Source of the DNA: Schmidtea polychroa
Lineage: Eukaryota
NCBI GenBank assembly: GCA_044892525.1
Contig: CM097886.1
Location: 122,388,001 to 122,452,000, forward strand
DNA length: 64,000 bases
Direction of reading: 5' to 3'
Shown here: positions 3,359 through 36,330 of the stretch, in pieces
How positions within the stretch are numbered: position 1 is the first letter of the stretch
How the letters are laid out: the number at the start of each line of letters is the position of its first letter
Program-made: the position numbers and the translations under genes
The notes under the pieces: generated by a model
Databases searched by the model: none
What the model saw: only the letters and a program-made list of their open reading frames with translations
What the model was told of the DNA's origin: nothing

Positions 3359-3513
3359 AGCAAGAAGTATGGAAATATTTATTAATTAGTTTGGTTGTAA
3401 TTTTTTTCTAATTTTAGAGTTAGAATTTTATCGATTCTTGAATGTGAATGGATTTAGAGAGTTGTTAATGGTATCGATTTCGGTTTTGGTTTTCTTATGA
3501 TTTTTCGGATAAA

Positions 3514-13245: not shown

Positions 13246-13463
13246 CTTTGTCTAAATAACGATATCATTAACTCAACGTTGTACGCTTATATCTGGTTTA
13301 TTATTTATTTATTTTTACAATTCGTTATAGGAGTTGTTTTAGAAGTTTTACGCTTAAGTTTACCTTTAGTAGATTTGGGGGATTTTTCTACACTACTATA
13401 TAATGTTTTACGGGGTATATATGCCGATATTTACAATTAGTATATACAAAATTATTCGTCTCT

Positions 13464-14852
13464 CTACTCAGTCCTACTCTTCCCGTCTCGCCTCACCGCT
13501 ATTTTTATGTATATAGTGTCGTTTCTCGTCATGTCTTCTACTTTCCGCTGTAGGATGAAATTCGGTGCTCCAGTTGCTGGTCCTTCTTCTTCCAAGGGCC
13601 TTTGGTAACATACGAGGTTTCCCGCTGTATGGAAACTCTGTTCATGTATACTTTGATAGTTCATCATTGCGAGGTCTATTTTTGCTTTGAATGGCCATTC
13701 TATTAACTCGTCGTATAGCCCTTTGCACATCAAGAAAAATACTGAGAAATGCGTTCCGTATGCACTTCCATCCCCATTGGGGTATGCTTTCATTTTCATT
13801 TTATACCCGTATTTCCATGAGTAGAATGCTGGACTTAGTAATGTTGTATCCTTTCCATTTCTCGCTCTCTGCATCTTCTCTTTTACTCCCGTTATTTTCC
13901 ATATGTATGGAGCCGTTGGTATTAATTCGTTGAGGTTTAATTCGCTTACTTTTTGATGTAGTTCTTTCACCATAATGTTGCTAGTTTCCACTAGATCTGT
14001 CTGTATCTTTGTACTTGTTCTCGCCTCTTCAAATGCTTCCTTTTCTTCCAATAGTTCTTTTACCAACGCTTTTAGCGAGACTATTTCTCTTTCTAAGTTT
14101 TCGGTTTTTCTTTCGTTTTCTTGTAATACCGTTGACCATATTTCCGCGTGTGTTGATACGTTTTCTGCTAGATGTTGGGGTAATTCCCCTCGGTGTAATT
14201 GTTTCTGACATCCCCATTTTCCTAGCACACACGTTATCTTTTTCCTTTCACATTCTCTGAGATGTTGAGCGAGTCTTATTACTCCAGATTTATCGCATTT
14301 ATTGGGACATTCTCCTCTGAACCCTGCGCACACTTTCTCCTCTTGTATGTTGTGATGTTGACTGATTAATTTTTTCCAGGTGTCGGTTTCTCCGCAATAC
14401 TCACATTTCTCCAGTCTTTCTTCGCATCGACTTTGATGTTCTGCTTCTTCATTGACTTTAATCTCTTCTTGGCAACGTTTGCATTGACTGATTTTATATT
14501 CACATTGCTCCATATGTTGCCTCACTTCCCATATCCCTCCTCGCCAATTGCATGGGGTGTTTTTACATCCTAAATTTGAATTTAACATATCTTTCACGGC
14601 TGCTTTATCTTCGTTTGTATCTCCCAAACTTGTTATCATGGTTTCTTTACATACTGGGCACCATTGTGGTCCCTTCTTTATTATCACCTCTACACATTCT
14701 CTGCACATTCTGCATCCACATCTGGTTTGGTGAGGTTCTCTTAATAAGCTCTTGCATATTCCACACGTTACATGGTTGTGTATTCGAATTGTGGTGGACT
14801 TTCTGACTTGTTCAACAATTTCTTTGAATTCTTCTCGTTGTCGCTTATCCAT
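13464..14852 (-). CDS. Intronless TRAF-family protein (RING, TRAF zinc fingers, coiled coil, MATH/TRAF-C)
   Basis: RING CGIC..LLREP.QT.CGC..CREC...CPVC; zinc fingers C.N..C.W.G....HMEQC, CEYC, CPNKC, HLREC, GC; MATH YIWKI...SPAFYS..YGYKM...YPNGDG...GTHFSVFF...KG.YD..I.WPF. Paralogue not assignable by eye. Confidence 0.93.
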   Translation of the reverse strand: MDKRQREEFKEIVEQVRKSTTIRIHNHVTCGICKSLLREPHQTRCGCRMCRECVEVIIKKGPQWCPVCKETMITSLGDTNEDKAAVKDMLNSNLGCKNTPCNWRGGIWEVRQHMEQCEYKISQCKRCQEEIKVNEEAEHQSRCEERLEKCEYCGETDTWKKLISQHHNIQEEKVCAGFRGECPNKCDKSGVIRLAQHLRECERKKITCVLGKWGCQKQLHRGELPQHLAENVSTHAEIWSTVLQENERKTENLEREIVSLKALVKELLEEKEAFEEARTSTKIQTDLVETSNIMVKELHQKVSELNLNELIPTAPYIWKITGVKEKMQRARNGKDTTLLSPAFYSWKYGYKMKMKAYPNGDGSAYGTHFSVFFLMCKGLYDELIEWPFKAKIDLAMMNYQSIHEQSFHTAGNLVCYQRPLEEEGPATGAPNFILQRKVEDMTRNDTIYIKIAVRRDGKSRTE

Positions 14853-14941
14853 TTCTATAATTATATATATACATATATTCGTTACTGGTACAGTTTCGTA
14901 TTTTTATTTACAGTTATTTACATTGCTATTTTAGGTTATAT

Positions 14942-15469: not shown

Positions 15470-18400
15470 CTATATACGTGAGCTTGGAGGGCGCTGAGCA
15501 TTCCAGGCCTCCACCCACTGTTCCTGCTTGATATTACTTGGTCGTTTTACATGATGTTGAAAATTTCTTATTCTGGCCATTTCTAGTTCTCCGCGATGCC
15601 GTCTATCTTTGATTATTTTTATTGTCCCCCCCGTTATGATTAAAAAGGCCCCTGTTATTATTATGCCGCTGATCCACATCATCTGTTTTACGCTTATAAT
15701 TTCCGCTTTTTCCTTGTTCATTATTGTTGATATTGCCTCTGTGCTTTTTAGATTACCGTCTTTGCCATTTCCTTTTATCATTCCTCGTATTCTTGCTATT
15801 TCCTCGTTCATACCTTCCTTTGCCATTTTTTGTATTTTCTCCATCTCTTCCTCTGATACATAATTGTCCTGATATTTCTCACCGGTTTTCTTGCGTTTTC
15901 CTTGCTCATCTTTTTCGTCATTGATTTTTCTTTTCTTCCCTCTTTTCCCAGGGTATCGTCGACATTCTCTTTCTGGACCGTTTCTCAGGATACAGACCGT
16001 ATATTCCTTTGGTGGTTGTTGTTGCGTTACGTATTGTAGACAATTTTCTCCTGGTCCTAGCCTTGAAATACACACTTTGTGCTCTTTTCTTGGTTGAAGC
16101 TGTGTTATCACTATTTCACCTCCTTTACTTAGGTGTACCTCTTTCCATTTGACTTTTGTTATTTTCTTCCCGTTTCGATGTTGGTATGCTTCTTGTATTC
16201 CCACTTCCGTTATTGGTTCTGCATCTTCATTTTTTAACACTAGTCTCTGATAAGCTCTAGACATACATCTTCCTAATATACACCTTTCTTTTAAATCCCA
16301 TTCCTCTTTTAGATCCCATTGCTGCTCTTGTACTTGTTTTTTCTTTTCTTGTTTTAGTTCTTCCTCTTTGTTGTCCTTATTTTCCGTTTCTTTGGCTTCT
16401 TTTATCGTTCTCATTCCTCCCTGGGCTGTTATCATTTCCACCATTGTTAATACGAGTATCATTATCATCATATTTGTCTCCATTTCTTTGTTGGTAAAAA
16501 GTAGACATACCCTCTGTTTTCCACTATTCGTCTTTTCTTCTTGCTTTATTCGGTTTCTCGGGTTATTTTCCTCTTTTTTCCTACTCGCGTCGTTATTTTC
16601 TTGATTATTCTCCTCTGATTTCTCTTTCTCTTTATTCCCGTTTCGACCTTTTTCATTATTATCGTCGTCTTTATCGTCTTTATCTTTATCGCCTTTATCT
16701 CCCTCGCTGTCGTTTGAAATGTCGTCCTCGACATTTATATCATTCAACAATCTGCGGTATGCCGTTAGCACTCTGTTTCTTGCTAATTTTGCTTCGAATT
16801 CGAACTCCTTTCTGCCTGTTGCTACATGTCTCTTTCTATTCCATTCTTTCACTAATTCTCTTAATTGTATCCGACGATGTTTTCCGATTCGCTTTTGTTC
16901 GTTTTGATTTTGCGTGAATTTGAGATCTTCCCTGTTTAATACGATCATTATGATTTTTGGAGTTCCTCCTTTTGTTAGTGTATTTTTAACCATAGCATTT
17001 ACTCCGTTTTCGTAAAACTCATTTATATTTATTGCATATTTATTGCTTTGCGGTATTTTCCATGTTAGCAATAATTTCATGGCTTCTAAGCTCATCCGTA
17101 TCGTGTTCCATTGGAACTGCGACGTGTTTTTACAGATATTTTCTACCTCAGTTCTTGTAGCATTTTTACAAATGAATCTAATCATTTCCAAGTTTGGTTG
17201 TATTGTTGCCCAATCCATGGCAGAATTTCCTTCGTTTGATATTTCGTCAAGTCTCGAACCTGATTGATGTAGTATATGTAAGGTTTTCGGGTGTATCTTT
17301 GTTATTGCTGCATACATCATTGCTGTTTCTCCTTGTTCATTTTTTGCATTAGATTCTTCTCCCAAGTCTCTAAGAATTCTTATGATGGTTATTGCTCTGT
17401 TTTCTTTTGCTGCTAAAATGGCTTGTTGTAATGGTGTTCTTGAATCTTTTGTTGGTAAGGTGAATGCTAGTGGTATAAATGCTTTTATTTTTCCTATGTC
17501 TAGATTTGTGGTCTGGTCTCTCGCGTAGGTGTGTACTGTTTTTGTTATTTTTGCTAGTATCGCTTCATCGGATAGATCTTGCATTTCTTCAAAGAATACT
17601 TCTTTAGCCTTACGTATTACTATCTCTTGGTCGGAGTTTATTATCTTTGGTTTACTTGTTGTTGCTATATCGCTTATTATTTGATCGACTCGTTTCTCAG
17701 ACTTTCTTACTGTTATTTTCTTGATTTTAATCTTTTTCTTGTTCGAACTGTTAATGCGTTCCTCTGCCGTTAGAACTTGAATAATACTTAGGTAAGTTTC
17801 TCGAATGTTATTCATATTTTCCATCATATATAATACACTCACGGTTTCCCAAAATTTTACTTGTACTTTATCGGTAAATTGAGATATAGCTTTTTCGAAG
17901 TCGGTAATTCGTTTTCTGATTAGTTGTTCGTCTTTGTGATTTGAGAACTTTATGCCACGTTGTAGTAGTTGATTTGGAATTTCGAATAGGTGATGTCCTC
18001 TCATCGCTTCTCTCATCAAGGTGTTTTCTCCTTTGGTAAATGTTTCGTTTATATCTACCATATAATCGTTTTTGATCGGGTTCCTCCATGCAATTAGTAA
18101 TCCAGCAATTGTTATTAATTTCTCTTTGATTGCAGTTAATAGCCCGTCATACATGTTTCCTATCTCCCTATTATCCTCGTATGATAATAGATCTACTAAG
18201 ATTATGAAGGCTTTCGTACTTTTCCCTTCGATTGCATGATGTAGTGCATTTTTCTGGTTGTGATCCTGTGTGGTTATCTTTGACCCAGTTTCAAGTAATG
18301 CGATAATAATATCTTTAGCTTTATCCCGATTGGCTGCTATCATTAGTGGAGTGTAACCTTGGTTGTTTTCTTGATCCGTCGAAATGTTACAGTCGCGAAA

Positions 18401-19555
18401 TGCTTCGATCGTTTCCAGTATTTGTTCATTATTCCCGACCTTTAAAAGTTTGTGCAGCGGTGTATCTCCATAATGGTCTGTGATCGTAAATAATACAGGC
18501 CATTGACTTTTTACTACCCTGAGTAATGGGTGTGTTCTTTCTCGGTTTGCATAGTTTTCGATCATGGTTAGCAGACCTCCCAATATCTCAAAATCTAATC
18601 GGTCTTTTGCCCATCCGGGCATTTTAGCTTTCACTTCCTTTATGATTTTCTCGGCTTCTGATGGTCGTAACCCCAATCGGTTACCTGTTGGTTCGTTTAT
18701 CTGCTGTAACATATTTATTCTATATGTTTGTGATCTTGTTGTTAATGTTCGCCCTTCCGGCTGGCTGGTGGCTGTTTTCGGTATTGGCTTACATCGTGCC
18801 ACATTTACATATATTGGCCTCGTGAAGGGGTTGTTTACCAATCGTACTCTCACATTGGTTTCTCCGATGAATAGAATCTCATACGGACCTTTGCCGTTTC
18901 GTTGTAATTTTTTGGTGGTTCCTGGAATTAATTCCGGTGTTTCGATCATCACCCAATCACCGGTTTGAAATGTATGTTGTTTAACGTTTTTCTTTCTATC
19001 ATGCAGATCTTTGTAACTTTCCTGATAAAACTTTATATTTAATCCCGCAGTTTCCCAGATTTCTTGCATTCTTTCCTTGAACTTGGTTACATAATCGTCT
19101 ATTTCCATGTATTGTGATATTGGTGGCTGATATTCTAAATCCATTGGCATATTGCATTCTCTGCCGTACATCAACTTAAACGGACTCATCTTTGTGGACG
19201 CGTGAATCGACATTCTGTAAGCCATTAAACATAATTTTATATACTCGTCCCAGTCGCGTTGATGACGATCGACGTAATTTGATAACATTTGAATCAGTGT
19301 TCCATTGAATCTTTCTGTCATACCATTAGTTTGTGGATGGTACGGTGATGTTCTTAATTTTGCGATCTTGAAGTAGTTGGTGACTTCGCTCATTATTTCA
19401 CTCATGAAGTTTGTTCCTTGATCAGTTAATATCTGTTTTGGTGTTCCATATCGACAGCATATCTCCTCTACTAGTATTTTTGCGATTGTTCTTGCTTTCT
19501 GATCTGCCATAGCGAATGCTTCGGGGAATTTTGTCAAATAATCTGTGATTACCAA
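15470..19555 (-). CDS. Integrase catalytic core and GPY/F module fused to two ankyrin-repeat modules, a charged low-complexity region and a C-terminal membrane segment (1361 aa)
   Basis: TDQGTNF, YHPQTNGMTERFN, SPFKLMYGR, KGPYEI. Ankyrin motifs GDTPLH, GYTPLMIAA, KNALHHAI, RTPLQQAI, GETAMMYAA, GNSAMDWA. Hydrophobic MMIMILVLTMV and WISGIIITGAFLIITGG. Confidence 0.9.
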   Translation of the reverse strand: MVITDYLTKFPEAFAMADQKARTIAKILVEEICCRYGTPKQILTDQGTNFMSEIMSEVTNYFKIAKLRTSPYHPQTNGMTERFNGTLIQMLSNYVDRHQRDWDEYIKLCLMAYRMSIHASTKMSPFKLMYGRECNMPMDLEYQPPISQYMEIDDYVTKFKERMQEIWETAGLNIKFYQESYKDLHDRKKNVKQHTFQTGDWVMIETPELIPGTTKKLQRNGKGPYEILFIGETNVRVRLVNNPFTRPIYVNVARCKPIPKTATSQPEGRTLTTRSQTYRINMLQQINEPTGNRLGLRPSEAEKIIKEVKAKMPGWAKDRLDFEILGGLLTMIENYANRERTHPLLRVVKSQWPVLFTITDHYGDTPLHKLLKVGNNEQILETIEAFRDCNISTDQENNQGYTPLMIAANRDKAKDIIIALLETGSKITTQDHNQKNALHHAIEGKSTKAFIILVDLLSYEDNREIGNMYDGLLTAIKEKLITIAGLLIAWRNPIKNDYMVDINETFTKGENTLMREAMRGHHLFEIPNQLLQRGIKFSNHKDEQLIRKRITDFEKAISQFTDKVQVKFWETVSVLYMMENMNNIRETYLSIIQVLTAEERINSSNKKKIKIKKITVRKSEKRVDQIISDIATTSKPKIINSDQEIVIRKAKEVFFEEMQDLSDEAILAKITKTVHTYARDQTTNLDIGKIKAFIPLAFTLPTKDSRTPLQQAILAAKENRAITIIRILRDLGEESNAKNEQGETAMMYAAITKIHPKTLHILHQSGSRLDEISNEGNSAMDWATIQPNLEMIRFICKNATRTEVENICKNTSQFQWNTIRMSLEAMKLLLTWKIPQSNKYAININEFYENGVNAMVKNTLTKGGTPKIIMIVLNREDLKFTQNQNEQKRIGKHRRIQLRELVKEWNRKRHVATGRKEFEFEAKLARNRVLTAYRRLLNDINVEDDISNDSEGDKGDKDKDDKDDDNNEKGRNGNKEKEKSEENNQENNDASRKKEENNPRNRIKQEEKTNSGKQRVCLLFTNKEMETNMMIMILVLTMVEMITAQGGMRTIKEAKETENKDNKEEELKQEKKKQVQEQQWDLKEEWDLKERCILGRCMSRAYQRLVLKNEDAEPITEVGIQEAYQHRNGKKITKVKWKEVHLSKGGEIVITQLQPRKEHKVCISRLGPGENCLQYVTQQQPPKEYTVCILRNGPERECRRYPGKRGKKRKINDEKDEQGKRKKTGEKYQDNYVSEEEMEKIQKMAKEGMNEEIARIRGMIKGNGKDGNLKSTEAISTIMNKEKAEIISVKQMMWISGIIITGAFLIITGGTIKIIKDRRHRGELEMARIRNFQHHVKRPSNIKQEQWVEAWNAQRPPSSRI

Positions 19556-21956
19556 TATATATATATATATATATATTCCCTCTATCTGATTCTGGTAGTG
19601 GACCGACTACGTCCATTGATATCATAGTCATTGGTTCTGCTGGTACTGGCATTGGTTTTAATGGTGCCTTCCATTTTGTTCCCGTGTTTTTTCTGGTTGC
19701 GCAAGTTATGCAATTTTTCACCCATTCCGTTACATCCTCGGTCAATGTAGGCCAAAAATATTTTTGTTTCATTCGTGCCAACGTCTTTTTAGATGACATA
19801 TGTCCTCCGAGTCTTCCGTCATGGTATTGTGTTAGCAGATCTTTACGTCTATTCTCGGGAATGCACATCAGTCTTTTCTCGCCATCCATTATCAATAACC
19901 AATCTTTCTCTATTATATATCGATGTCGATGTTTATCCATATGCTCTTTCAATTTTTGATCTTTCTCATATACCTCTGCTTTTCCAGTTTTTACATATTC
20001 GATAATTTGTTTCAACTCGTCATCATCTTGCTGGTCTTTTCGTAGTTGGCAAAAATCTAAATCTTCCGCTACCATTAGACATATTCGTTGCATTTCGTGA
20101 TCTACTAAATCTGGAAAGATAAATCTGGACATACAATCCGCATTGGCATTCGCTCTTCCCGCTTTGAATTTTATGAACGGTGAATATTCTTGTAACTGCA
20201 TTGCCCATCGCATCAATCTACTTGAAGCTTCTTTGTGTTGGCCAAGCCATACTAGTGGTTGATGATCTGTTGTGATACATATTTCGTGTCCCCATAACAA
20301 ATATCGAAAATGTTTAATCGCTTGTATAATTGCTAACGCTTCTCTCTCGGTTACGGAATAGTTTTTCTCATGCTTTTTAAACGTTCTGCTGTAGTATCCA
20401 ATCACTCTTTCTTTTCCTTCTTCATCCAGTTGTCCTAATATTGCTCCGGCTGCATATCCACTTGCATCTGTTGCTAATAAGAACGGTTTCTTGAAATCAG
20501 GATGTACTAGTATTGGGGCTTCAATTAATTTATCTCGCAATGTCTCAAATGCTTTTTGTTGTTCTGCACCCCAAATAAATGAAATATCCTTTTTCACTAA
20601 TTCCTGTATTGGTTTCGCAATACCTGCATAGTTTTTGATGAATTTTCGATAATATCCGCATAATCCGAGAAATTCTTGAACTTGAGTGACAGTTTTTGGT
20701 GCTGGACATGTTTTTATTTTTTCTATGTTTCTTGGATCTGGTTCTTTGCCTTTTGCTGACACTATGTGTCCTAAGAACGTAACTTTTTCTTTTGCCCAGT
20801 CACATTTGGATGGTTTAAGTTTCAATTTCCATTGTCGTAATCGAACGAACACGTTTCTGATATCTTCCAAATGTTGTTCGAATGTTGCTGAATATATTAA
20901 TAAATCATCAATATATACCATGCACTGCTTGATCCCGTGCGTGACGAAATTCATACATCTCTGAAATGATGCTGGGGCATTGGTCAGTCCAAATGGCATT
21001 TTCCTGAATTGATACAGGTCTCGACCCAACGTGAAGGCCGTTTTCTCCTTGTCTTCCTCTTTAACTTTGATCTGCCAATATCCGCTTTTTAGATCTAAAG
21101 ACGTAAAATATGCGGCCCCTTGCAGCATAAGTAACATCTCATTGATGTCTGGTAACGGGTATGTGTCTCTTTTTGTTACGGCATTTAGTTTCCGATAATC
21201 GATACAGAATCTCTGGGTACCGTCTTTTTTCTTCACCATGACTACTGGAAATTGCCATGGCGAACAACTTGGTTCGATCACTTGTGCATCTAGCATTTTT
21301 TGTACTTCTGCTTCGGCTATCTCTTTTTGCTTCTCTGCTAGTTTGTATGGACGTAGTGCGATTGGAGTTTCGTCTATTAATGGTATTGCGTGTAATGTAA
21401 CATCGCATGCTCCCAAATCTAAGTCCGAAATAGCGAATATATCTTTATATTCTATCAATAATTGTTGAAGTCTTTCCTTTTCCTTTTCCGTTAGCAATGT
21501 GCTATCGATTGTCCATAATTCGTCAGCTTTCGTTGTTTCATTGGTGATTTTTGGTAATTCGATGTCTATCATGGGTGTCAATCTACCCAATCTTTCATTT
21601 TCATATATGATCTTCTCTTCTTCCTCGAAATTTGTGATGTTAATTGGTATTTCCCCTTCGTCATTAATTGTTATTATTTCTCTTGCTAATGGTAATTCTC
21701 GTCGTTTTTCGAATGATTTGCTTGGCTCAAAAATGGCTTCTCCTTCCATTCCTGCATCCACTTTTATTTGACATATCATCTGGGATTTTGCTGGTACAAT
21801 TATTTTCTCCGGACATCTGATTATTGCGTTCATTTTGCATATTCTACCCATTTTATCTTTTAGGCACATTGTTGTTAGATCTATTACTACTTCTTTGAAC
21901 AATTCCGGCATTAAATCCGTTCCGATTATACATGGTTCACTCAGTTTGGGTATCAC
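19422..21956 (-). CDS. pol: Pol: protease C-terminus, reverse transcriptase, RNase H, integrase N-terminus; goes out of frame at the (AT)11 tract near 19555-19576
   Basis: RFCIDYRKLN, LDLKSGYWQI, MPFGLTNAPASFQ, YIDD, TFLGH; RNase H ATDASG..GAIL.Q, EREALAI, TDHQPL; H..H...CITC; MDVVGPLP. Confidence 0.95.
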   Translation of the reverse strand: MIPKLSEPCIIGTDLMPELFKEVVIDLTTMCLKDKMGRICKMNAIIRCPEKIIVPAKSQMICQIKVDAGMEGEAIFEPSKSFEKRRELPLAREIITINDEGEIPINITNFEEEEKIIYENERLGRLTPMIDIELPKITNETTKADELWTIDSTLLTEKEKERLQQLLIEYKDIFAISDLDLGACDVTLHAIPLIDETPIALRPYKLAEKQKEIAEAEVQKMLDAQVIEPSCSPWQFPVVMVKKKDGTQRFCIDYRKLNAVTKRDTYPLPDINEMLLMLQGAAYFTSLDLKSGYWQIKVKEEDKEKTAFTLGRDLYQFRKMPFGLTNAPASFQRCMNFVTHGIKQCMVYIDDLLIYSATFEQHLEDIRNVFVRLRQWKLKLKPSKCDWAKEKVTFLGHIVSAKGKEPDPRNIEKIKTCPAPKTVTQVQEFLGLCGYYRKFIKNYAGIAKPIQELVKKDISFIWGAEQQKAFETLRDKLIEAPILVHPDFKKPFLLATDASGYAAGAILGQLDEEGKERVIGYYSRTFKKHEKNYSVTEREALAIIQAIKHFRYLLWGHEICITTDHQPLVWLGQHKEASSRLMRWAMQLQEYSPFIKFKAGRANANADCMSRFIFPDLVDHEMQRICLMVAEDLDFCQLRKDQQDDDELKQIIEYVKTGKAEVYEKDQKLKEHMDKHRHRYIIEKDWLLIMDGEKRLMCIPENRRKDLLTQYHDGRLGGHMSSKKTLARMKQKYFWPTLTEDVTEWVKNCITCATRKNTGTKWKAPLKPMPVPAEPMTMISMDVVGPLPESDRGNIYIYIYIGNHRLFDKIPRSIRYGRSESKNNRKNTSRGDMLSIWNTKTDIN

Positions 21957-22498
21957 CGCTAGATACGTTTCAATTTCATTATCTTGATATCGTAACGTAG
22001 TCCACCATCTTCCTACTACGTCTACGGTTTCTTTACTGCATGCAATAATATGGATAGTTGTTTGTTCGATGTCTTTCCAACATTTACTGGGTATTTGGTT
22101 TATTGCTATTGCTGATACATTTGCTCCGGAATTATCATTGCGCTTGTCTCTTTCCCGTTGATTTGGATCATGACTGTTACTGCCGCGCCTCCTGGTGAAC
22201 TCATTACTGCTATTGTTCTGACGTCATCAGCTTGGTCTACGCTTTTCGTTCTTCGGGTCGGCATATAGTTCATACCTGGTTGACTTGGTAACTGTGGATA
22301 CATATTTTGTGTCATGGTCAAAGCTGTTTGTTGTCCAACGATATCTGGTGGTATATAACTTCCGTTGGCTATCCAGGTATTCGTTTTTTCTTTCTCCCAA
22401 AATGGTGCTGTTTCTATTGGCTTTTCATTCGGGTTTCTACTTGGATATGGATATTTGTCATTCCCATTGTCGTCATCATCACTATCGCTGCTGTTTGA
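21957..22498 (-). pseudogene. Linker plus aspartic protease, frameshifted by a 1-nt deletion in the catalytic Asp codon
   Basis: In frame after the env TGA: ...VMIQINGKETSAMI, then atg ata [g]at tcc gga gca aat gta. Restoring one G gives AMIDSGANVSAI and runs into the pol frame (...LAVIPKLSEPCIIGTDLM). Confidence 0.8.
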
Positions 22499-25400
22499 TC
22501 AATTTCTAAATCTGTCTAAAAATTTTGGTTTGTTCTTTTTCAGTTGTGTCCTTGTTGCTTCATCATACATTGTTTTCCGAAATCGTCTACCGACTTCCTC
22601 GTCAGTCCCTTTTATTTTTGTCAGTATTTTTATTAATCGTTTTATTCTGTGTATATCTTTAGAATGACCGTGCAACACCATTGTTTTTGCCAAAAATGGT
22701 AGAAAACCTACTATCAACTTCCAATTTACTTTCTTTTCTTTCTTATAGATATCAAAACACGCTAACATTTGAGTCAATATTACTCTGACAATCTGAATAA
22801 TTAAGATGATTCCCAATATTCCTGCCATCATTTGACCGAACACTAGAAATCTTCCCCACATTGCTTTCATCATGTTTGACGTGGCTTGTTGAAAATGATC
22901 GGGTGACAATAATAGTTCGTAATTGGGACCTGATTGGAAATTCGTTCCCCCAGTTATGGTAACCATATTTGATAGAATGGATTCTCGCCTTGCTGGGAAT
23001 AGTACGTTTAGTCGTGCCGTTTCTAAATCCTCTGCTGAGTACATACCTGCTTTTGACACATCAATTGGTTTGAAATCTTGCTCCGTTGCGAGTTCTATTA
23101 ATCCAAACTTTTTAGGCTCTTGTACTTCGGTTTTTACCGGTAACATTATCCATTTCCCATCGGGTTTTTCATATAACGGTCCGTATGCATTTGAACAGTT
23201 GAAGGTGTTCGGATAAAATCCAATTGGGTTCATAATTCTAGTGACGGGTTGAACGAATCTGTTTTGCCCTTTGTAACTAATTTCCAACTCGTTTGCGCAT
23301 TTCCCTGGTGGTATTGTGGGTTTTCTTGGCAGTCGCGCAAACGTCTTGGTACATGCATATGTATACATTACCTCTCCCACCATTCTACCAAAATGTCCAT
23401 CCGGTAACGGGAGTGATGGCATTGTGTTATCTGGGTGTGTTATTGCGATGGCTAATTTTGTTTTTAGTATCTCTTTATTCAATGAACAGTCATTTTGTAT
23501 AAGATCGTAGTATACTTTTTGCATTGTCGTTTGTCCTCGATGAAATAAAAAGTCCATTTTGTTGTTGGCATAAAGGTACAACTTCACGTCCTCCGTTGAT
23601 ACTTTTCCTACTGCTCGGTCTATTACTTGCCTTGACATGTAGATACCTGCGTAGTTCGTCCGATATACTATGCTGTCACATTTGGTGGTCTCTTTTTCTC
23701 TGATGAATCTCATACCGATATCTGGATCATCTGTAATTAATGCCGTTGGTGTTTTTTGTGTTGTGAGTCTCTTTTCTTTGGGGGATGGTGGAACTGGTTT
23801 CCCATTTCGCATCCTTACGTTTCCATTCTCTTCATCGTCATCTTCGTTTTCGTAAATTTCTCCTTTTACTTCATTGAATAGAGCACTTTTTAACAATTGG
23901 AGTCGGCATTTTTGGGTGTTAGCTTCATATATTATAGTCGAAATTCCCGTTCTACACACGTTTTCCGTAGCTCTGCATGCTGGGTTGGTTTTCATTTGAT
24001 AGTTGTTTGCGTCGAATTGTGCTTCGTATTCCTTCAACTCCAATGTGTAGGACTCAATTACTACTACTCCCGAGATCACTTCTCCTCTGATCGTATATGT
24101 GCCTCCGTTACATGATCCATCAGTTGATTTTACTCGTCCGGCTACATAGATACTTTCCGTCTTGATCATTCCGCTTTGTCCGTGTATTGTTACTCCATCC
24201 CTGATTCTCATCGCTCCGGTTCTAAAAAGCTCTTTACAGTCTTCCCGTTGTATAGGTACTATTTCTTTATCTAATCCAGGTAATATGAGGGTTGAATATG
24301 AGTATTGTCCACAGTAGTATGCCAACACTTTCTTCGATACTACGCATTCTCTAGCTTGCGTCCTAATGAAATCTGATTCTTGGTATACGTGATAGGAGAC
24401 TTTCTTTTTTACTATATCTAATTTATTCGGAGATGCCTGTCTACATTCCTCTATATCTCTCAGGGAGTATCTTTCTCCTATTATTGAATTGTCACAGTCG
24501 TAAATTGTAAATCCAGCTGCTCCACTGGTGCAGAGCATCCATATCATCATGGTCATCATTAGTGAATTAATCGACGCTTTTCTGCTGGCTGGGTCTTTCA
24601 ATGGCAATTCCCATTCCAGTTCGTTTAGCAATTTCTTCAACCGAATTTGCATCGATCTCTCTTGCTCGTTTTTTCGTGGCGCTTGTATGAGTCTTTTCCA
24701 CCCACCGGCACGGATAATATGTGGTTCGATTGTATTTTCAATGATTGTAACGGTCATTTCTACATGATTTGCGAATTGTTTGTTAGGTATTTTCCTTGCT
24801 GCTAATCCCATCAAATTGTACATTAGATACGTTAATACTACTAAATGATGTTCGTCGTCGTTTGCGTTTAAAGTTAATTGTTCAATTACCCTTCTTGTCT
24901 CTTCCCAATCGGTTTTAGTGGTTTTTGTCTTCTCTTTGATTAATTTCGGAATTATTCCGGATATTGTGTTCCATAGCTGTCTGGCATCTACGCTTGCTAC
25001 TTTTCGTTGCCATAACCGTCTCAATTGCGGGTTTGTTATTATTAACATATCCTTTACTAGCTCTCGTATCCATTTTTCACCTCTCTCGATTGTTGGTTGA
25101 GCCTCTTTTAGATCCCATACTATTTTATCCAATTTCTCTAATCTGACTTGTCCTTGTTCCTGTTTCAACTGTTCTCTGGTTTTAAATTCTGGTTTTTCTC
25201 CTTGCTTCTTGGGTCTTCCTTTTGCCCGTTTCTCCATCATTGTTCCAGCTTCTCTTGTCGTTTCATAATTCGGGTTTCTCTCGTTATCTGTTCTTGGCAA
25301 TGAGCTATCGTTGTTTCTCAGCCACTCATTCCATTCGTCTATTATTTTGTCCGTTTGACCTTCTGGTGTTGGTTTCGTCGGTCCTTTTGGTCGTTGGAAT

Positions 25401-27397
25401 TGTTCGTCGGTTTCGGTTTCTGTTGTATTATCGATAATTTCCTCTATGTTCAGCTTATTTGGTTGTTGATAGCTAGTTGACGGTTGGCTTGTTGTCCATA
25501 TTTCGGCTCCTGTCGGCCATCTTACCAGAATTGGTGATCTTTCTCCAGCTCCTTCATCGCTGTCTTCTAATATGATTTCCTCGATTTCCTCGGTTTCATT
25601 CGATTTACTCGCCACTTTGTTAGGGCTTGGTGTACTCAAGCTACCTTTCGTAGTTTTGCTGGATTTGCTCTTCCTTTTAATCGGTTTTCCCAATGTTTCT
25701 GCCATTGTCAATACATTGATCTCCCCCAATCTCATGGGTGTTATTCCGACATCTGCATTATCATCTAACGATTTTCCGAATAGTTGTAGGTGAAATGGAG
25801 TTTCGTATGCTAACTTCTTTTTTAACTCTCTGATCTTTGTTGTTGGATGTACTTTTATATCCTCAATGCTTTTGTCGGGATACTTGACTCGGATACGATA
25901 CCTTTCCTGGGTATCTTGTGCCCATTCTTGGTTTCTCCATTTCCTAATAATTTGTTCTAGCTGTTCTGGGTACCATTCGTTATATTGTCGGTATTCCTCA
26001 ATCGCTTTCGCCATTTCTCTTAGATTGTGGATATTCTCTGATGTCTTTAGGATGATGTTAGCCAATGCTACTACTTGTCGTTTTTGATTTTTTGCTCCCG
26101 TTGCTAAGATATCACCTAATTGTTTATATCTTTCCTTCTCTTCTCGTTCTCGAGCTTCCATCGCTTCTTCGCTGTCCATATCGGCATATTCGCGTTCTTT
26201 CTTTCTCATCGCATGAATATGTCTGGTTTCCGTTTCACTTTCTGACGTAACATCCGTTTCGCTTTCGTCGTCCGATATCGATTCTATTTCGTCCTCTTCG
26301 TATTTTGGAGGTTCATCTTCCTCTTCCTCTGATTCACTTTCTGTCTCACCAATCTCTGTTTCTACGAAAATTCCTTTCCTGACTTCCCACTCTTTATTTT
26401 CCGCATTCCACATCCTTTCCCAGGGAGTTCGTCTGCAAGATCTAGTACTTAGTTTCTTTATTTTTCCTTGTAGTTCCTTTTCCTTTAACCACTGTTGATG
26501 AATTTCAATTATCTCTACTGATTTTTTGTATAGCGTTTTCATCCTGTCTCGTATTTCTTTCTGGTATGTTACATCTCTTGTTCGGAATTCGTCCATGGGC
26601 AATATTCTGATGATTTGATGATTATCCCACATTCCCATTTCACTTAACGAGGTATCGTCTTCGGCCCGTAATATTATTTTGTCGTACATCATGACTACGT
26701 CATCTATCATACCATCACTACTCTCGCTTCGTACCTTTTCCGTTATCTCTTGGTTTATCTTTGTTACTAAGTCATCCACCGTACTCTGATTACTCATCTT
26801 TATTCGTCGTTTCTCCTCGTTTGGTAACCATATGGTTATTTCTAACTTCTGCGGTTGCGTTTCTTTTAATCTTCCATATTTGTGGATCAAATTTATGGTT
26901 CTCCAATCGCTCATCCTGAGCAATTCTGTATCTCGTAATCGGCTCATTAGTTCATGCATATCTGGAGTTCGTCTTGCTATGAGTAAATCCCAGTTATCTT
27001 CGACTTGTTCTTGAATTTGTTTGATTAGTTTATCTAGATTCCGCCTTAAAGTGCATTGTTTTATTTGTTCCAATTTCAGCTTGATATTGAAATCGTATTC
27101 AGCCTTGGCGTCTTTAGCCCATTCATGAACATTAGTTGGTTGCTTCTCTTTATGCAACTTCAATATTTGAGTTTCTCCTGGCCAGATCAATGCATCTATT
27201 AGGTGCATGTCTGGCTTAATTTGTTCTCCTTGGTATTGATATAAATACTCTTTCTTTCTCGAGCTGCCCAAATGTTCTCTTATCCAATCGAAAAGATCGT
27301 CTGTAACTGTATTTTTTATCCATATTCTCTCGAGTCCTTTACTCGTTCCGATTTTTATTACGTAGCGTGTTGTCTCCGCTTGTTTCATTTTTTCCAT
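22499..27397 (-). CDS. env: 1632-aa ORF: N-terminal accessory region (3 ubiquitin-like domains, Bcl-2-like domain), then signal peptide and chuvirus-like envelope glycoprotein with C-terminal TM
   Basis: Hydrophobic leader ending ...SGAAG|FTIYDC (mature start 24511). Cys pattern YDC...YSL.D..EC, YYCG..S, C..L..TG, AG....DG.C.GG.Y, VVV..Y.L resembles chuviral G. TM WGRFLVFGQMMAGILGIILIIQIV. BH2-like IEPHIIRAGGWKRLI at aa 890-904. Confidence 0.82.
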   Translation of the reverse strand: MEKMKQAETTRYVIKIGTSKGLERIWIKNTVTDDLFDWIREHLGSSRKKEYLYQYQGEQIKPDMHLIDALIWPGETQILKLHKEKQPTNVHEWAKDAKAEYDFNIKLKLEQIKQCTLRRNLDKLIKQIQEQVEDNWDLLIARRTPDMHELMSRLRDTELLRMSDWRTINLIHKYGRLKETQPQKLEITIWLPNEEKRRIKMSNQSTVDDLVTKINQEITEKVRSESSDGMIDDVVMMYDKIILRAEDDTSLSEMGMWDNHQIIRILPMDEFRTRDVTYQKEIRDRMKTLYKKSVEIIEIHQQWLKEKELQGKIKKLSTRSCRRTPWERMWNAENKEWEVRKGIFVETEIGETESESEEEEDEPPKYEEDEIESISDDESETDVTSESETETRHIHAMRKKEREYADMDSEEAMEAREREEKERYKQLGDILATGAKNQKRQVVALANIILKTSENIHNLREMAKAIEEYRQYNEWYPEQLEQIIRKWRNQEWAQDTQERYRIRVKYPDKSIEDIKVHPTTKIRELKKKLAYETPFHLQLFGKSLDDNADVGITPMRLGEINVLTMAETLGKPIKRKSKSSKTTKGSLSTPSPNKVASKSNETEEIEEIILEDSDEGAGERSPILVRWPTGAEIWTTSQPSTSYQQPNKLNIEEIIDNTTETETDEQFQRPKGPTKPTPEGQTDKIIDEWNEWLRNNDSSLPRTDNERNPNYETTREAGTMMEKRAKGRPKKQGEKPEFKTREQLKQEQGQVRLEKLDKIVWDLKEAQPTIERGEKWIRELVKDMLIITNPQLRRLWQRKVASVDARQLWNTISGIIPKLIKEKTKTTKTDWEETRRVIEQLTLNANDDEHHLVVLTYLMYNLMGLAARKIPNKQFANHVEMTVTIIENTIEPHIIRAGGWKRLIQAPRKNEQERSMQIRLKKLLNELEWELPLKDPASRKASINSLMMTMMIWMLCTSGAAGFTIYDCDNSIIGERYSLRDIEECRQASPNKLDIVKKKVSYHVYQESDFIRTQARECVVSKKVLAYYCGQYSYSTLILPGLDKEIVPIQREDCKELFRTGAMRIRDGVTIHGQSGMIKTESIYVAGRVKSTDGSCNGGTYTIRGEVISGVVVIESYTLELKEYEAQFDANNYQMKTNPACRATENVCRTGISTIIYEANTQKCRLQLLKSALFNEVKGEIYENEDDDEENGNVRMRNGKPVPPSPKEKRLTTQKTPTALITDDPDIGMRFIREKETTKCDSIVYRTNYAGIYMSRQVIDRAVGKVSTEDVKLYLYANNKMDFLFHRGQTTMQKVYYDLIQNDCSLNKEILKTKLAIAITHPDNTMPSLPLPDGHFGRMVGEVMYTYACTKTFARLPRKPTIPPGKCANELEISYKGQNRFVQPVTRIMNPIGFYPNTFNCSNAYGPLYEKPDGKWIMLPVKTEVQEPKKFGLIELATEQDFKPIDVSKAGMYSAEDLETARLNVLFPARRESILSNMVTITGGTNFQSGPNYELLLSPDHFQQATSNMMKAMWGRFLVFGQMMAGILGIILIIQIVRVILTQMLACFDIYKKEKKVNWKLIVGFLPFLAKTMVLHGHSKDIHRIKRLIKILTKIKGTDEEVGRRFRKTMYDEATRTQLKKNKPKFLDRFRN

Positions 27398-27442
27398 ATA
27401 CTTCTTTATTATCGCTTTCTCCTCGCTTGGTATTAAATCTTT

Positions 27443-29368
27443 TTAGTTTCTTTCCAGTTTCATTATCTTTTGTATGAAGCGTCTGTATGGTATGATGTCA
27501 ATGAAATCCTGGTTTCTTACCACCACTGGAAGTATTTCTTTTACTTGTTTTATCGCCTCTTCTTTTTCCTTTCTCAGTTTCATCTCGATATTCTCATCTT
27601 CACTTTCGCTTGCCACATCGCTTTCACTTTTCTCCTCATCTTCTCCGATCTTTTTCTTTAGTTGTTCGATATTTTCATTTAACTGTAATATTTCTCCACC
27701 AAGGCTACTCACATAATCCTCCTCGTCATCTGTTGACAATACCTTCTTTGTCGTCCTCATCATGTTAATTCGTAAGTTTCTCATTCTTGATACTTTCTTG
27801 AGCTTTTTATTCTCAAATATCGTTAATTCTTCCGATTCTAATTCTTGTACCATTTCATGGGTTAAATGACTAGTTTGTTTCTCGTTTCCGTCATTTATCG
27901 CTTCTGCTTCTGTTTTTGTTTTCTCATGTTCTCTTTCGATCTTATCTTTTATCTTTTTCCAAAATATTTTCTGGATTCTCTGATTTCCCTTTAGTGGTGT
28001 TGTTGGATTTTTCTTTTTATCTTCTGTAACCGTTTCTTTCGGCTTCTCTGGTTCGATCATAGGTACAACTCTTGGATTTTTACCATAATTGTAACAATAT
28101 TGCTCCTTTATCTCTTTTACCATTCTCATCATATTTATTCGTAATGGTTGTTCTTGTCGCTGCTGAATTCGCTCTCGTTTTATTCTCTCTTCCTCAGCTT
28201 GTAGTCTCTGCCATTCTTGTGCATGTTGTTGTACTTCATAATTGTTAAGATTTTCGGTGCTCCTCATCATGCGTATATTCTGAGTTTGTTGTGGTACTTG
28301 TTCTTGTCTCGGTCTCATCATTTGTTGCATCATCTGTTTCATTTGTGAAATTTCTTGCATCACGTTCATTTGCTTTCCTTCACTGGGGTTACTTTGTCGT
28401 TGCGGATTAGGTGCATAATTATTGTTTCGTTGTGGTGGTCGTTGTTGTTGGCCCCTTTCTCGGCAATCTCTTGAGATGTGACCCGGTTGACCACAGTTAA
28501 AACATCCTCTCAATTGACATATATTTTCCGTGTGTCCTCGTCGTCCACACCTATTGCAATTTGCGCTTCGGTAACAATCTCTATCCCAATGTCCTGGTTT
28601 ACCGCATGTTCGGCATTGTTTGTTATCGTTCGTATTTCGTCGATTATTAAAATTATTTCCATTGTTCGAGTTGTTGCGTTCACTGTTATTCCCGTTTGAT
28701 CGTCCTTGCGGTGGTTTGAAAATTTGATGCGCACCTGGTATAAACTGATTCATCTTCGGTTCATGATTGTTGTTATCTCCATTTTCTGTTTTCGCCGTAG
28801 CTGCTGCGATTCTTCCCTCCTCTTGCATGACATTCATTTGTGCCGGGAGGTGTTGATCGCATCTTGTGGCCCAATCTATGGCCTCTTCTAGTGTTTTACA
28901 CATCTGACATCCCACCGAGGCTCTTACCTCTTCCCGGCGTAGTCCTTCTATGAAATAACCAATTAAATTTTCCTCTGGCAGGTTTCCGTTCATGGCCTTC
29001 TTTGCCAATCTTCGCAATTCGCTTGCGTATAACGTTATTGATTCATTTGCTCTTTGTTTTCTACTCGCTAATTCTCCTAGGGCTTGATTTATTGGTTTGC
29101 TGGCCCCGAATGTTTTTCTCAAAAATGTTTTGATGTTTTCCCAATTGTCTAATTTCGTATTTCTTTCTTTTGCTTCTAGATACACTTCGAGTGCGCTATC
29201 GCACAAAAACAGAGGCATTCGTTTACTAATTGCTTCCGCTGTCCATCCGCACACATCGATATAGACTTCAAAATTTGTTATGAACGTTGCCAACTTGTTC
29301 GCATTCCCGTTAAACGGTTCGCCTCTAAATTTTTCTTTATACTCGTCGGTTTTTACCACATTCATCAT
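27443..29368 (-). CDS. gag: Gag: retrotransposon capsid domain, three CCHC zinc knuckles, long Q/K/E-rich extension (641 aa)
   Basis: Capsid-like FITNFE...WENIKTFLRKTF...Q..NESITLY..ELRRLA...FIEGL; knuckles CRTCGKPGHWDRDC, CNRCGRRGHTENIC, CFNCGQPGHISRDC. Confidence 0.92.
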   Translation of the reverse strand: MMNVVKTDEYKEKFRGEPFNGNANKLATFITNFEVYIDVCGWTAEAISKRMPLFLCDSALEVYLEAKERNTKLDNWENIKTFLRKTFGASKPINQALGELASRKQRANESITLYASELRRLAKKAMNGNLPEENLIGYFIEGLRREEVRASVGCQMCKTLEEAIDWATRCDQHLPAQMNVMQEEGRIAAATAKTENGDNNNHEPKMNQFIPGAHQIFKPPQGRSNGNNSERNNSNNGNNFNNRRNTNDNKQCRTCGKPGHWDRDCYRSANCNRCGRRGHTENICQLRGCFNCGQPGHISRDCRERGQQQRPPQRNNNYAPNPQRQSNPSEGKQMNVMQEISQMKQMMQQMMRPRQEQVPQQTQNIRMMRSTENLNNYEVQQHAQEWQRLQAEEERIKRERIQQRQEQPLRINMMRMVKEIKEQYCYNYGKNPRVVPMIEPEKPKETVTEDKKKNPTTPLKGNQRIQKIFWKKIKDKIEREHEKTKTEAEAINDGNEKQTSHLTHEMVQELESEELTIFENKKLKKVSRMRNLRINMMRTTKKVLSTDDEEDYVSSLGGEILQLNENIEQLKKKIGEDEEKSESDVASESEDENIEMKLRKEKEEAIKQVKEILPVVVRNQDFIDIIPYRRFIQKIMKLERN

Positions 29369-30640
29369 GACTGGTTCTTGTAACTCTATTGTTTCTTTTA
29401 AATTTTCCAGCGGTGTCGCTAAATTATGGACGGATAATTCTTCTGTTGACCCGGTTACGTTGTTTGTTATATCGGATAGGCTTTCTCTGCTTCTAGATCG
29501 ACTAGGGGTGTATCCGAGGTTTTCTTGGTCAAATGTTGGTACTTGATTTGTTCTTTTTGCTCCTTGTGATCTTCCTCTTTGCTGTTTTATGGATCGTCCT
29601 CTTCTGAGCTGTTCTAGTTCGTCTCCTGAAATTAATACGTCTCTTGACTTACTTGAGGATCTGAGATTTAGTTTCTCCGTGATTTCTTCTTACGCCTCCT
29701 TATCGTCTCTTATGGATTTCTCGGCAATTATCGGCTGCTGACTTGAGCGAATTCGGTTTTGTCGGTGTTCCGAGTCCTTGGCAATTGGTTGTTAGCGTTA
29801 TGAGACGTCTTCCGTTCTTGGAATCTTCGGGTTGTGTTACTCCTACTGAGCGGGTTCTGGATTGGTTATTTCTAGTTGGTCGTTAATTTCTTCGAATTCC
29901 TTTGTGCAAGTTCTGGATTGGCTTGATTGACTGGATTGGTTTGGTATCTAAAATGAAAAAATGATCTCGTGTTGCATCTGCTCACACGACTTCATCATTC
30001 TTTCTTCAACATTCAAACACAGACACCGTTTAGGGCCTCTGTTATACTTCCCCTTATTTCCCCATACAATTTCTCGTGGATTATAGTTACCCATCAACCC
30101 ATAGTTTTCGTCGATTTTAAATTATCTATTTAGGGTAGTAATAATTATCTATATGGTCGTATGAATCATCTATAATTATCATTTATAATATCGATAGGTC
30201 GTTGTCAGTTACTGCTTATCACCCCCCCATATTCTCTTAATCCTTTTACGCGATTCCGCTATTTTACTTAATCTTTCGTCTCTGTTCCCCTTTACTCGGT
30301 TCTACTCTGAACCAAAAAAAAATCGGATTCGTTTATCCGGTTTAAACCAAAATTCTGTAGACTTTTGTCTACTTACTTGGGATCCCCTTTAATTAATTAA
30401 TTACCTTCCTTTTTACTCGTCATTTATTCCCACTTATTCTCTACTTTTACTATCTCCTCAATTCATTTTCCTTTTCTGATTCTCCTTTTCTACTAAAAGG
30501 GTTTTACTTTCATCTTCTACGAGCTCGTTTAATCCTTTCTAAATTCGACTTCTCGTATCCCAATTCAATTCGTTTCTAGCTAGCTTAATATTCTATCTCA
30601 TTATCAACTTAAATATTATCCAATCATTTTCTAGGCCTTT

Positions 30641-31642: not shown

Positions 31643-32122
31643 TTAACTGAAGTAAATCGTGTGCTTCTCCTTTATTGCACATACACATAAAGAACAATGC
31701 GTTAAACTGACGGCGCATTCGTCGCAATGGCTAAGGTGTCCACAAGGTAGCATTAGAATTCTGGCAGGTCGCGTCTTACAAATGTTACAAGTTCTCAAGG
31801 CCGCTGCTTTTTCTATTATCGAGGTTCGTATTCTCTGAGATAGAGTTTTTACTTGTTCGCGTATTCTCACATATTCGAGGTTCAGAGCGGGGTCGTCGAG
31901 TCGTTGCTGCATCCATTGGTAATGGACAGACAAGTCGGTGTCGGTATTTGTTGACCCCAATCTGTCGGTTAGAAAGTTTTGTTTGGATATCAGCGGTGCG
32001 TTGTGGCGTTGTTGCTCTAGGGTTTCTATTTGTTGCAGTTTTTCTCTTAACGTCTTTATGGAATCGTTTTCTATGTCGACGAACCGGCTTAGTCGTTGTA
32101 GATGTTTCCTAGCTTCTGACAT
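31643..32122 (-). CDS. LTR-encoded coiled-coil plus C-terminal IAP-type C3HC4 RING protein (no BIR domain)
   Basis: CNIC......ILMLPCGH..HCDEC...L..CSLC...I....IYFS* follows the IAP/zf-C3HC4_3 RING spacing and terminal aromatic tail. The acceptor-like ttttgtag lies 2 nt before the ATG. Confidence 0.85.
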   Translation of the reverse strand: MSEARKHLQRLSRFVDIENDSIKTLREKLQQIETLEQQRHNAPLISKQNFLTDRLGSTNTDTDLSVHYQWMQQRLDDPALNLEYVRIREQVKTLSQRIRTSIIEKAAALRTCNICKTRPARILMLPCGHLSHCDECAVSLTHCSLCVCAIKEKHTIYFS

Positions 32123-32708
32123 ATCTACAAAAGTATGTTGTCATTACTCGGTCTCACTTATAAAAATAAAAATAATATTATCGTGTTATAATCAATGTTC
32201 GTTTGGCTTTGTTCGCTATTGTTTCTAGTTTATGTATTTTATTCAATCTCTAATAATTCTTTTTTAATTTAATTCATTTAAAATTAAACAAAATTAGTCA
32301 ATTCCCATTTTCTCTTCTCTTCATATTCAATCACATTCATTCAAACTTATTTAGGTTCGTTTTTGTTCATAGCATGTTCTATTTTACGCAAAGACAGTTC
32401 GCATCATCATCTTAATACACTATAATATCAATTCATTTCAGTCCCGATTCCCTTTTTTTATTATAATTAATTAAATTGTTAGTCTAACACATCGTAATAC
32501 AGTAATAGGCAATCAAACAATTCGAAATCACAATCCCGGCTGAGCCCCCAAAAATCATGTTGGCGTATGTGGGGAAAGAGAAAATATGCCCACCTGATCA
32601 TCATACATCCCAAGTACTCTCTTCCGCTCCGATACTTCCCATACATACTCCAAAATGATCAAATACATATTCCCACGTATGAGCCCGTGGGGGTGTTCCA
32701 CGTTGGTG

Positions 32709-32810
32709 CTGCTCACACGGGTTGGAAAAGGTTAGCAGGTGAGCCCCTGCCTTAGGACTACTCCTAACCCTTTCTCGGTTCGGGTTCCATGGTGCCATAG
32801 AAGGTCTTAC
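32709..32810 (-). ncRNA. Conserved ~102-nt structured, intron-like element (GTAAG...CTCAC/CTAAC...CAG) in the LTR
   Basis: Homologues at 9731-9832, 44883-44984, 49984-50086, 56811-56915, 57193-57301 and 62429-62531. The hairpin around the GCTCAC loop shows compensatory changes. Confidence 0.5.
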
Positions 32811-33100
32811 CCGTTTCTTCGCTCCTAATTCAGTCCAACCCTGGTCCAAAGGGACGACATTTGCGCTCGTACTATGTCTCCAAGAGCACCTTTTACTCAA
32901 ATCAACCACAGCAAATCACACATACCATGAAAAAAAAAATCAAAGACTTCAAACAGTTGTATTAAATCGAAACATAAAAATACATTCACCATTAATTAAA
33001 TAAGAACAAAACATCAAAGGTCATGTACAGGATAACGTCAACTTCTCCGAGTTCCTTCATACCGCACAAAGATTGAGACAAATGAGAAAAAAGGAATTCA

Positions 33101-33865
33101 TTACGAAAACACTTCTCCTTCTGCGATCATTTCGTCAATGTCGACGGGCAACCGGCGATCTTCGAGGAATTTGATGCCGTCGGCCGGAACTAACCGAAAT
33201 ACTTCTTTCGTAGGGATAGAATGGGTGATTGTAATTTCCTTGATCGTCGATTTGGCTGCAGATAACGATGCCTCGAGCGCGGCCATGGCGTTTCTGCGCT
33301 TCTGATTTTTCTCTGAGCGCGTCGGTCTCTTACGCTTTCGAGGTGGAAGAGTGGCTCCTGCTGGAGGCCGGGTGAGTGGCGACGCGAGGACTGGAGCCAA
33401 GATAGGGTCCGATGGACCGCCAGCCATAGGCCGATAGCCAGAAAGAACTGGGGCGGGAATTGGTGGCAATTGTAGGCCGTGCCCCTTGCAACTGATGGTT
33501 GATGAGGTTTCAGTGGATTGATGGTGTTCCGGGAACACGTTAGTCCCATCTTGTATTGGGTATTCGCGAACTCGCTTCGCTATCTCGGATTCCGAATATA
33601 CTTTGTGCAGTGCCTCTGATTGGGCTTTTATGGTTAGCCTCTGGCATCTGCTCTCCTCGAGGAGACTGTCACGGCAGTGCTCCAAACGTAGAATTTTTCT
33701 CTTCTCTTCCTTCATTTGTGGCGGGGAGAACCACGTGCCTTCGTAAAGGTCGATTCTTTTCTTTAAAGCCCCGATGTATAGATGAAGCTGCGCGATATCT
33801 GCGTTTTTATCTGCGCAGGAGAAACATGGGCGAAGAGTTTTCTCAGCAGTTGTTGGAGTAGTCAT
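33101..33865 (-). CDS. LTR-encoded hypothetical protein (254 aa; CxxC, coiled coil, Pro-rich linker, basic NLS-like motif)
   Basis: Intact ORF homologous to 8672-9433. Nine of the 22 codons of LHLYIGALKKRIDLYEGTWFSP differ synonymously between copies, with no amino-acid change. Confidence 0.85.
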   Translation of the reverse strand: MTTPTTAEKTLRPCFSCADKNADIAQLHLYIGALKKRIDLYEGTWFSPPQMKEEKRKILRLEHCRDSLLEESRCQRLTIKAQSEALHKVYSESEIAKRVREYPIQDGTNVFPEHHQSTETSSTISCKGHGLQLPPIPAPVLSGYRPMAGGPSDPILAPVLASPLTRPPAGATLPPRKRKRPTRSEKNQKRRNAMAALEASLSAAKSTIKEITITHSIPTKEVFRLVPADGIKFLEDRRLPVDIDEMIAEGEVFS

Positions 33866-36284: not shown

Positions 36285-36330
36285 GTTTTGTTGCTCTTTA
36301 TATATATTTTTCCGTCCAATCAGGACACAC
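36285..36330 (-). promoter_or_regulatory. Putative LTR promoter (ATTGG/CCAAT box, then TATA), ~480 bp inside the 5' end of LTR A
   Basis: gtgtcctgattggacgg...tatatataaagag. The same layout occurs in copy B (6310-6340), C (54661-54696), D (58315-58352) and E (59264-59288). Confidence 0.6.

Follow-up and report, generated by a model that had tools for sequence, protein, structure and literature searches.

A predicted gB-type envelope domain inside the gag-env-pol polyprotein of a giant Ty3/Gypsy element, probably of the Burro group, in Schmidtea polychroa

Planarian Burro elements, according to the part of their 2019 description that is available (PMC6431247), are longer than 30 kb and carry a 4,873-amino-acid ORF1 with ubiquitin-like, BCL2-like, MATH/TRAF and ankyrin domains. 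The same part places an env region with matches to mononegavirus fusion glycoproteins between BCL2 and the protease, and calls planarian Burro the first case of an in-frame env between gag and pol. De-repression in smedwi-2 RNAi has been shown for BURRO1 and for one BURRO4 copy (PMC8532177, available part). More recently, GAG-ENV-POL errantiviruses with an HSV/gB-type ENV were described from Platyhelminthes, Nematoda and Bryozoa, with ectodomains flanked either by a signal peptide and a transmembrane segment or by two transmembrane segments (Chary and Hayashi, eLife 2026, PMC13524379). A sequence-only reading of the locus analysed here had taken an env between gag and pol to be atypical. The layout is real but already published for this group of elements, being in print for Burro (PMC6431247, available part) and for flatworm, nematode and bryozoan elements (PMC13524379). 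With high confidence, we read the locus as a giant Ty3/Gypsy element, likely one of the Burro group, whose envelope domain lies in one frame between Gag and Pol, is likely a class III membrane-fusion protein and was likely inherited within an old gag-env-pol lineage.

The window, by which we mean the whole 64,000-nucleotide stretch of S. polychroa DNA that was analysed (contig CM097886.1, positions 122,388,001 to 122,452,000), belongs to an AT-rich genome and holds the element on its minus strand. The 5' LTR (32558..36801; 4,244 bp with TG...CA ends) is followed, seven bases inside, by a primer-binding site (32532..32550) with a 19-nt match to the 3' end of tRNA-Pro(TGG) plus CCA, a tRNA gene of the same genome. 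Upstream of gag lies a RING-finger accessory ORF (31643..32140; zf-C3HC4_3, E 2e-8). Gag itself (27443..29689) has a capsid domain (Retrotrans_gag, E 1e-10) and CCHC zinc knuckles, and its terminal stop is private to the window copy. An in-frame spacer (24572..27442), conserved at the protein level, separates it from env and contains weak ubiquitin-like (about 25790-25897) and Bcl-2-like (about 24698-24850; E 0.02) matches, all below the Pfam cut-off. The envelope domain (22499..24571) is followed at 22223-15470 by protease, RT, RNase H and integrase, of which a weakly matched protease (E 0.011), RT (YIDD at 20915), RNase H and the integrase zinc finger fall in 19422..22498, and the integrase core with its GPY motif, ankyrin repeats, a second signal-like stretch and a C-terminal transmembrane segment in 15470..19606 (Pfam, hydropathy). 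Beyond pol lie an intronless TRAF-like accessory ORF (13464..14903) with a RING-like finger (E 4e-4, just under the cut-off), a Cys/His-rich part and a MATH domain (E 4e-25), and a coiled-coil-like accessory ORF (12446..13251) that is cut at 12446. The window copy is broken at four places and about 2 kb of the 3' internal region is missing; the protease is frameshifted near 22100-22150, and the reading frame changes between zinc finger and integrase core at an AT run near 19550-19590.

The order of pol domains, the TG...CA LTRs, the tRNA primer site and a short target-site duplication make this a Ty3/Gypsy (Metaviridae) element. Among solved structures, yeast Ty3 is the closest match to its RT-RNase H (E 5e-93), a result that together with the pol order bears out the Gypsy backbone proposed from the letters alone, and no BEL/Pao domain was reported in the Pfam scan of the element ORFs. 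A second copy measures about 30 kb from LTR to LTR and has a 4-bp target duplication; the window locus has one of the same length, and a motif search in three further copies did not locate both element ends. Several smaller features were observed along the way. A 254-codon ORF within the LTR (33101-33865, minus strand) has no Pfam match, the leader before gag contains 74-bp tandem repeats (30639-31075) whose number varies among element copies, and the 3' region missing from the window copy holds, in another copy (L021:7835-9150, minus strand), two accessory ORFs of 253 (charged) and 169 (hydrophobic ends) amino acids, neither with a Pfam match above cut-off. The tRNA-Pro(TGG) pattern, from the same tRNA that matches the primer site, has 1,555 genome matches, and these tRNA genes form a long tandem array of 475-bp period on G000:C1 near 130.90-130.95 Mb (L087-L090).

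The published description, the size, the single polyprotein (near 4,800-5,100 amino acids in Burro) with env between a BCL2-like region and protease, and the ankyrin and MATH/TRAF cargo make it likely that the element belongs to the planarian Burro group. As far as the available part of PMC6431247 goes, Burro/GYPSM1 of Schmidtea mediterranea and Dugesia tigrina resembles it in length (about 30 kb), in having one polyprotein near 4,800 amino acids, and in the succession of Gag CCHC knuckles, ubiquitin-like and BCL2-like domains, in-frame env and protease-RT-RNase H-integrase, with ankyrin and MATH/TRAF domains. However, MATH/TRAF is here a separate ORF downstream of pol, whereas in the same available part it lies inside ORF1 in Burro1 and upstream in the D. 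tigrina element. The ORFs scanned here gave no match to BIR or dUTPase, and the element thus differs from Burro1/GYPSM1, which is recognized by MATH_TRAF_C with BIR and by MATH inside ORF1. The nearest of the elements in PMC13524379 is Smed_errantivirus_5, with the same order, env type and Ty3/Gypsy pol and, judged by eye, about 55-60% identity over the first 187 ectodomain residues. Two exact motifs of the env protein had 0 matches in supplement 2 of PMC13524379, so this family is not among its six Schmidtea representatives. The paper reports neither LTR nor primer site for the six, whereas a 4.2-kb LTR and a tRNA-Pro site are defined here. The literature searched yielded no description of this exact family and no fusion test, although the extended data of Grohme et al. 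2018 may name it.

In the window copy the envelope domain corresponds to amino acids 958-1647 of a 1,647-amino-acid frame (22499-27442, minus strand). It matches PF24664 (Monjiviricetes_fusion) with an E value of 2.4e-73 and 247.6 bits against a cut-off of 27, and its residues include 16 cysteines and one N-glycosylation sequon. These results confirm that the domain is real and sits between gag and pol of a Ty3/Gypsy element, and they agree with the cysteine-rich ectodomain upstream of the protease that had been proposed. A signal-like hydrophobic stretch lies at amino acids 961-980 (nt 24562-24503; 11-residue hydropathy a modest 2.05), a strong transmembrane segment at 1538-1556 (nt 22831-22775; hydropathy 2.53) and a weaker third hydrophobic stretch at 1572-1590 (hydropathy 1.41). 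Past the transmembrane segment a tail runs towards the protease and ends, in this copy, at a private stop. The predicted signal peptide and transmembrane segment are therefore both found, the former in modest form, but the latter is not C-terminal in the family, given that the stop at 22499-22501 is present in 0 of 39 other copies.

The other copies decide how the locus is to be read. In a DNA search 40 of 322 candidates were scored, all 97-100% identical, and the 39 besides the window were compared. Thirty-eight of them have all seven markers and keep the order gag, CCHC, Bcl-2-like, env, protease and RT, the remaining one having only three markers. Among these near copies env is open in 31 of 39; 29 keep it in frame with the protease, and 18 join it to both gag and RT in a single frame. 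Of the 38 copies in which the stretch behind gag is present, 0 carry the stop found there in the window copy, and at the protease the reading frame of 38 of 39 departs from that of the window copy. In a protein search, 119 of 2,270 candidates were scored (91-100% identity). Forty of these matches lie in frames of at least 4,700 codons, 39 of them without a stop in the match, and 112 lie in frames of more than 1,000 codons, while a frame of 600-800 codons holds a single one. Because the stops flanking env are private to the window copy and long frames are found elsewhere, env is not a separate gene but an internal domain of one gag-env-pol frame of 4,700-4,800 codons, a point that the sequence-only reading had missed; its end at 22499 is damage in the window copy, since that stop recurs nowhere among the 39.

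The comparison also bears on whether the order arose by accident in the window copy, through rearrangement, nested viral insertion or misassembly. The window copy is damaged and located in a 15-kb duplication, as such an accident would have it, but the order recurs in 38 of 39 near copies and in 16 of 17 more diverged ones (the exception, like the 39th near copy, is without most markers), and unrelated library proteins show the same env-pol fusion. We regard an accident as practically negligible: the location of env between gag and pol, proposed from the one copy, holds in the others, and the window copy is not rearranged.

The duplication is a separate feature of the locus. Positions 1-12445 of the window are repeated at 35152-47597 with 99.94% identity. 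The repeated segment begins 2.6 kb ahead of the window, so that the duplication as a whole spans 1-12445 and 32557-47597 plus L013:7405-10000. It consists of an LTR and 10.8 kb of flanking sequence, in which a proteasome-subunit exon lies at 3469-4059 and 38620-39210. Giant LTRs of 15 kb were considered and rejected, given that LTRs in other copies measure about 4 kb and the additional 10.8 kb belongs to the flank. The end of the second LTR copy (1..1650, minus strand; its start about 2.6 kb before the window) is solo-LTR-like with AAAA on both flanks. Tandem duplication with subsequent recombination between LTRs would account for the arrangement. Alternatively, the 15-kb duplication could be an assembly error. 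An older LTR relative in opposite orientation (plus strand) was also observed at about 5800-9900 and 41000-45050, with 72-87% identity in pieces and an RNase H fragment behind it at 9810-10181.

Profile, predicted fold and cysteine pattern identify the putative fusogen as class III or gB-type. An AlphaFold2 model built with 112 sequences (pLDDT 89, pTM 0.70) has long beta strands and a 48-residue central helix at 314-361. Searched with Foldseek against predicted viral structures, its first four ranks are Tacheng tick virus 4, thrips chu-like virus, dermapteran chu-related virus and Wenling crustacean virus 14 (E 2e-37 to 4e-34, TM 0.53-0.69, 18-20% identity), after which come glycoproteins of xinmo-, rhabdo-, nyami- and herpesviruses. 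Against the PDB, phmmer with the single env protein matched no glycoprotein, while the env family profile retrieved 34 sequences at E<=1, all of them herpes gB and aligned over the central helix, with a best E value of 0.002. The proposal of a chuviral-like class III fusogen is thus upheld by PF24664, Foldseek and family-profile matches, and the HMM and structure search suggested with it was positive for both chuviral G and herpes gB. The G of Chuviridae/Jingchuvirales and the gB of herpesviruses share Pfam family, predicted fold and cysteine pattern with env, but they are stand-alone viral genes with about 20% identity or less, whereas env is here a domain of a retroelement polyprotein. Whereas the available part of PMC6431247 likens the Burro env to gypsy Env and baculovirus-type fusogens, the tests here point to class III.

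Relatives of the domain were sought with HMMER over 1.84 billion proteins, which gave 1,022 matches. The best are long proteins with 29-41% identity over the whole domain, compared with 20-27% for typical stand-alone glycoproteins of 620-700 amino acids. In a FastTree phylogeny of the window and 126 of 150 matches (24 fragments dropped), the window env falls in a 16-row branch (SH-like support 99) that contains all 11 long proteins and 4 shorter ones, apart from the 111 other rows. Nine of the 11 long relatives have protease and/or RT-integrase behind env, one of them also with a CCHC knuckle in front, and all 10 polyprotein relatives compared have a signal-like stretch before and a transmembrane segment after the ectodomain, with the third hydrophobic stretch in 5 of the 10. 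Fifteen cysteines are nearly invariant in the family alignment. A word-index protein search recovered 0 relatives among 5,348 candidates with the single env protein and 2 with an alignment, and 47 pattern matches in viral contigs included none that was confirmed. Among the library proteins, P0151 (4,844 amino acids), P0002 and P0004 have several protease domains behind env, P0113 is a stand-alone glycoprotein fused behind Ig domains, and P0006 is a retroelement polyprotein filed under a bacterial MAG.

A glycoprotein of the same family is found on another kind of LTR element, the mosquito BEL/Pao elements with a Chuviridae-like G (Dezordi et al. 2020, PMC7642597, available part). A comparable arrangement appears in library protein P0098, in which DUF5641 is followed by PF24664. 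The mosquito elements have a BEL/Pao backbone, in which env reportedly follows pol, whereas the present element is Ty3/Gypsy with env before pol.

Because env groups with env-pol polyproteins in the tree, inheritance within an old gag-env-pol lineage is likely, rather than capture by this element. The sequence-only reading had instead proposed an independent capture from a chuvirus, and a recent capture by the lineage of this element could account for chuviral G being the best named structural match and for the top Atlas clusters being PF24664, many of them viral (score 0.97, with a recognition value below threshold). GAG-ENV-POL elements, moreover, do not form one clade on the Pol tree of PMC13524379, which leaves room for multiple origins across phyla. 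However, viral G is 15-20% identical to env against 29-41% for the retroelement polyproteins, all 11 of these share one branch with env, and six other Schmidtea elements have the same env type and order. Recent capture from a chuvirus thus appears largely refuted and is, in our judgement, very improbable. The G phylogeny that had been called for places env with the retroelement polyproteins and apart from the other 111 rows, although the stand-alone G rows are mostly unlabelled (one cluster is a beetle genome protein) and the midpoint root is arbitrary, so that the tree gives neither donor nor direction of transfer. Overall, the sequence-only reading was right about the feature and partly right in its interpretation.

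Pairwise comparison of the window with 17 copies from among the more diverged ones, at 91-93% protein identity, gave dN/dS values for the env ectodomain of 0.031-0.060 (median 0.041) in the 16 pairs that aligned, with dS about 1.1, near saturation, and with most history shared by the pairs, which therefore amount to one contrast and not sixteen. The corresponding values are 0.042 for the gag-env spacer (15 of 17 pairs) and a median of 0.006 for RT-RNase H (13 values; 3 pairs saturated and 1 unaligned). At the codon level, these ratios indicate that env is kept under strong purifying selection.

In the sequence-only reading, env may allow spread from cell to cell or through the germ line. Selection of this kind shows need, not infectivity, and the glycoprotein may be kept for a role other than infection, such as intracellular membrane fusion, blocking of related viruses or routing of particles in the cell. 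The single frame would fit such a role, given that it implies about one env per Gag and Pol. In retroviruses, env comes from a separately spliced message. What the env of GAG-ENV-POL elements contributes to infectivity is called unclear in PMC13524379. Against this stand a complete ectodomain, the nearly invariant cysteines and a transmembrane segment kept across distant relatives, as expected for a working fusogen, and we consider a purely non-infectious role unlikely. Contigs of four sequencing runs contained no joint readable as an env splice, which is neutral as to splicing.

From the observed domain order, the single frame in many copies, the family and fold match and the purifying selection, we infer that the polyprotein would be made as one chain, starting in the cytosol with Gag. 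The signal-like stretch would then lead the ectodomain into the ER, with host signal peptidase cleaving after that stretch. The env transmembrane segment would return the chain across the membrane, which would allow protease, RT and integrase to be released in the cytosol. Flaviviruses and alphaviruses use the same topology, with a signal leading in and a transmembrane segment leading back to the cytosol. The element's own protease may also take part in cleavage, and the glycoprotein would trimerise and enter budding particles. The model needs the third hydrophobic stretch not to span the membrane, because Pol would otherwise land on the wrong side, and the moderate hydrophobicity of the signal-like stretch counts against it. 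At the end of the polyprotein, after the ankyrin repeats, 15470-16510 (minus strand) comprises the second signal-like stretch, a short Cys-containing region and the transmembrane segment; Pfam gave no meaningful match for this region, which is possibly a second membrane protein.

A more far-reaching proposal, which we put forward as doubtful though conceivable, is that the family is a still-infectious planarian retrovirus-like element. Its polyprotein would be cut in flavivirus style into Gag, a class III fusogen, Pol and a second membrane protein for attachment, the TRAF, RING, ankyrin and Bcl-2-like modules would keep infected stem cells alive, and the element would spread between cells of the regenerating animal without passing through the germ line.

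The layout itself matters little now that it is in print. The family is instead a test case: it is young, with at least 119 matches of which a third are in full-length frames, its LTR and primer site are defined, and strong constraint acts on its env. It is suited to the question of how an env inside a Gag-Pol chain is processed, and to the question of whether the gB-type env of invertebrate retroelements mediates infection.
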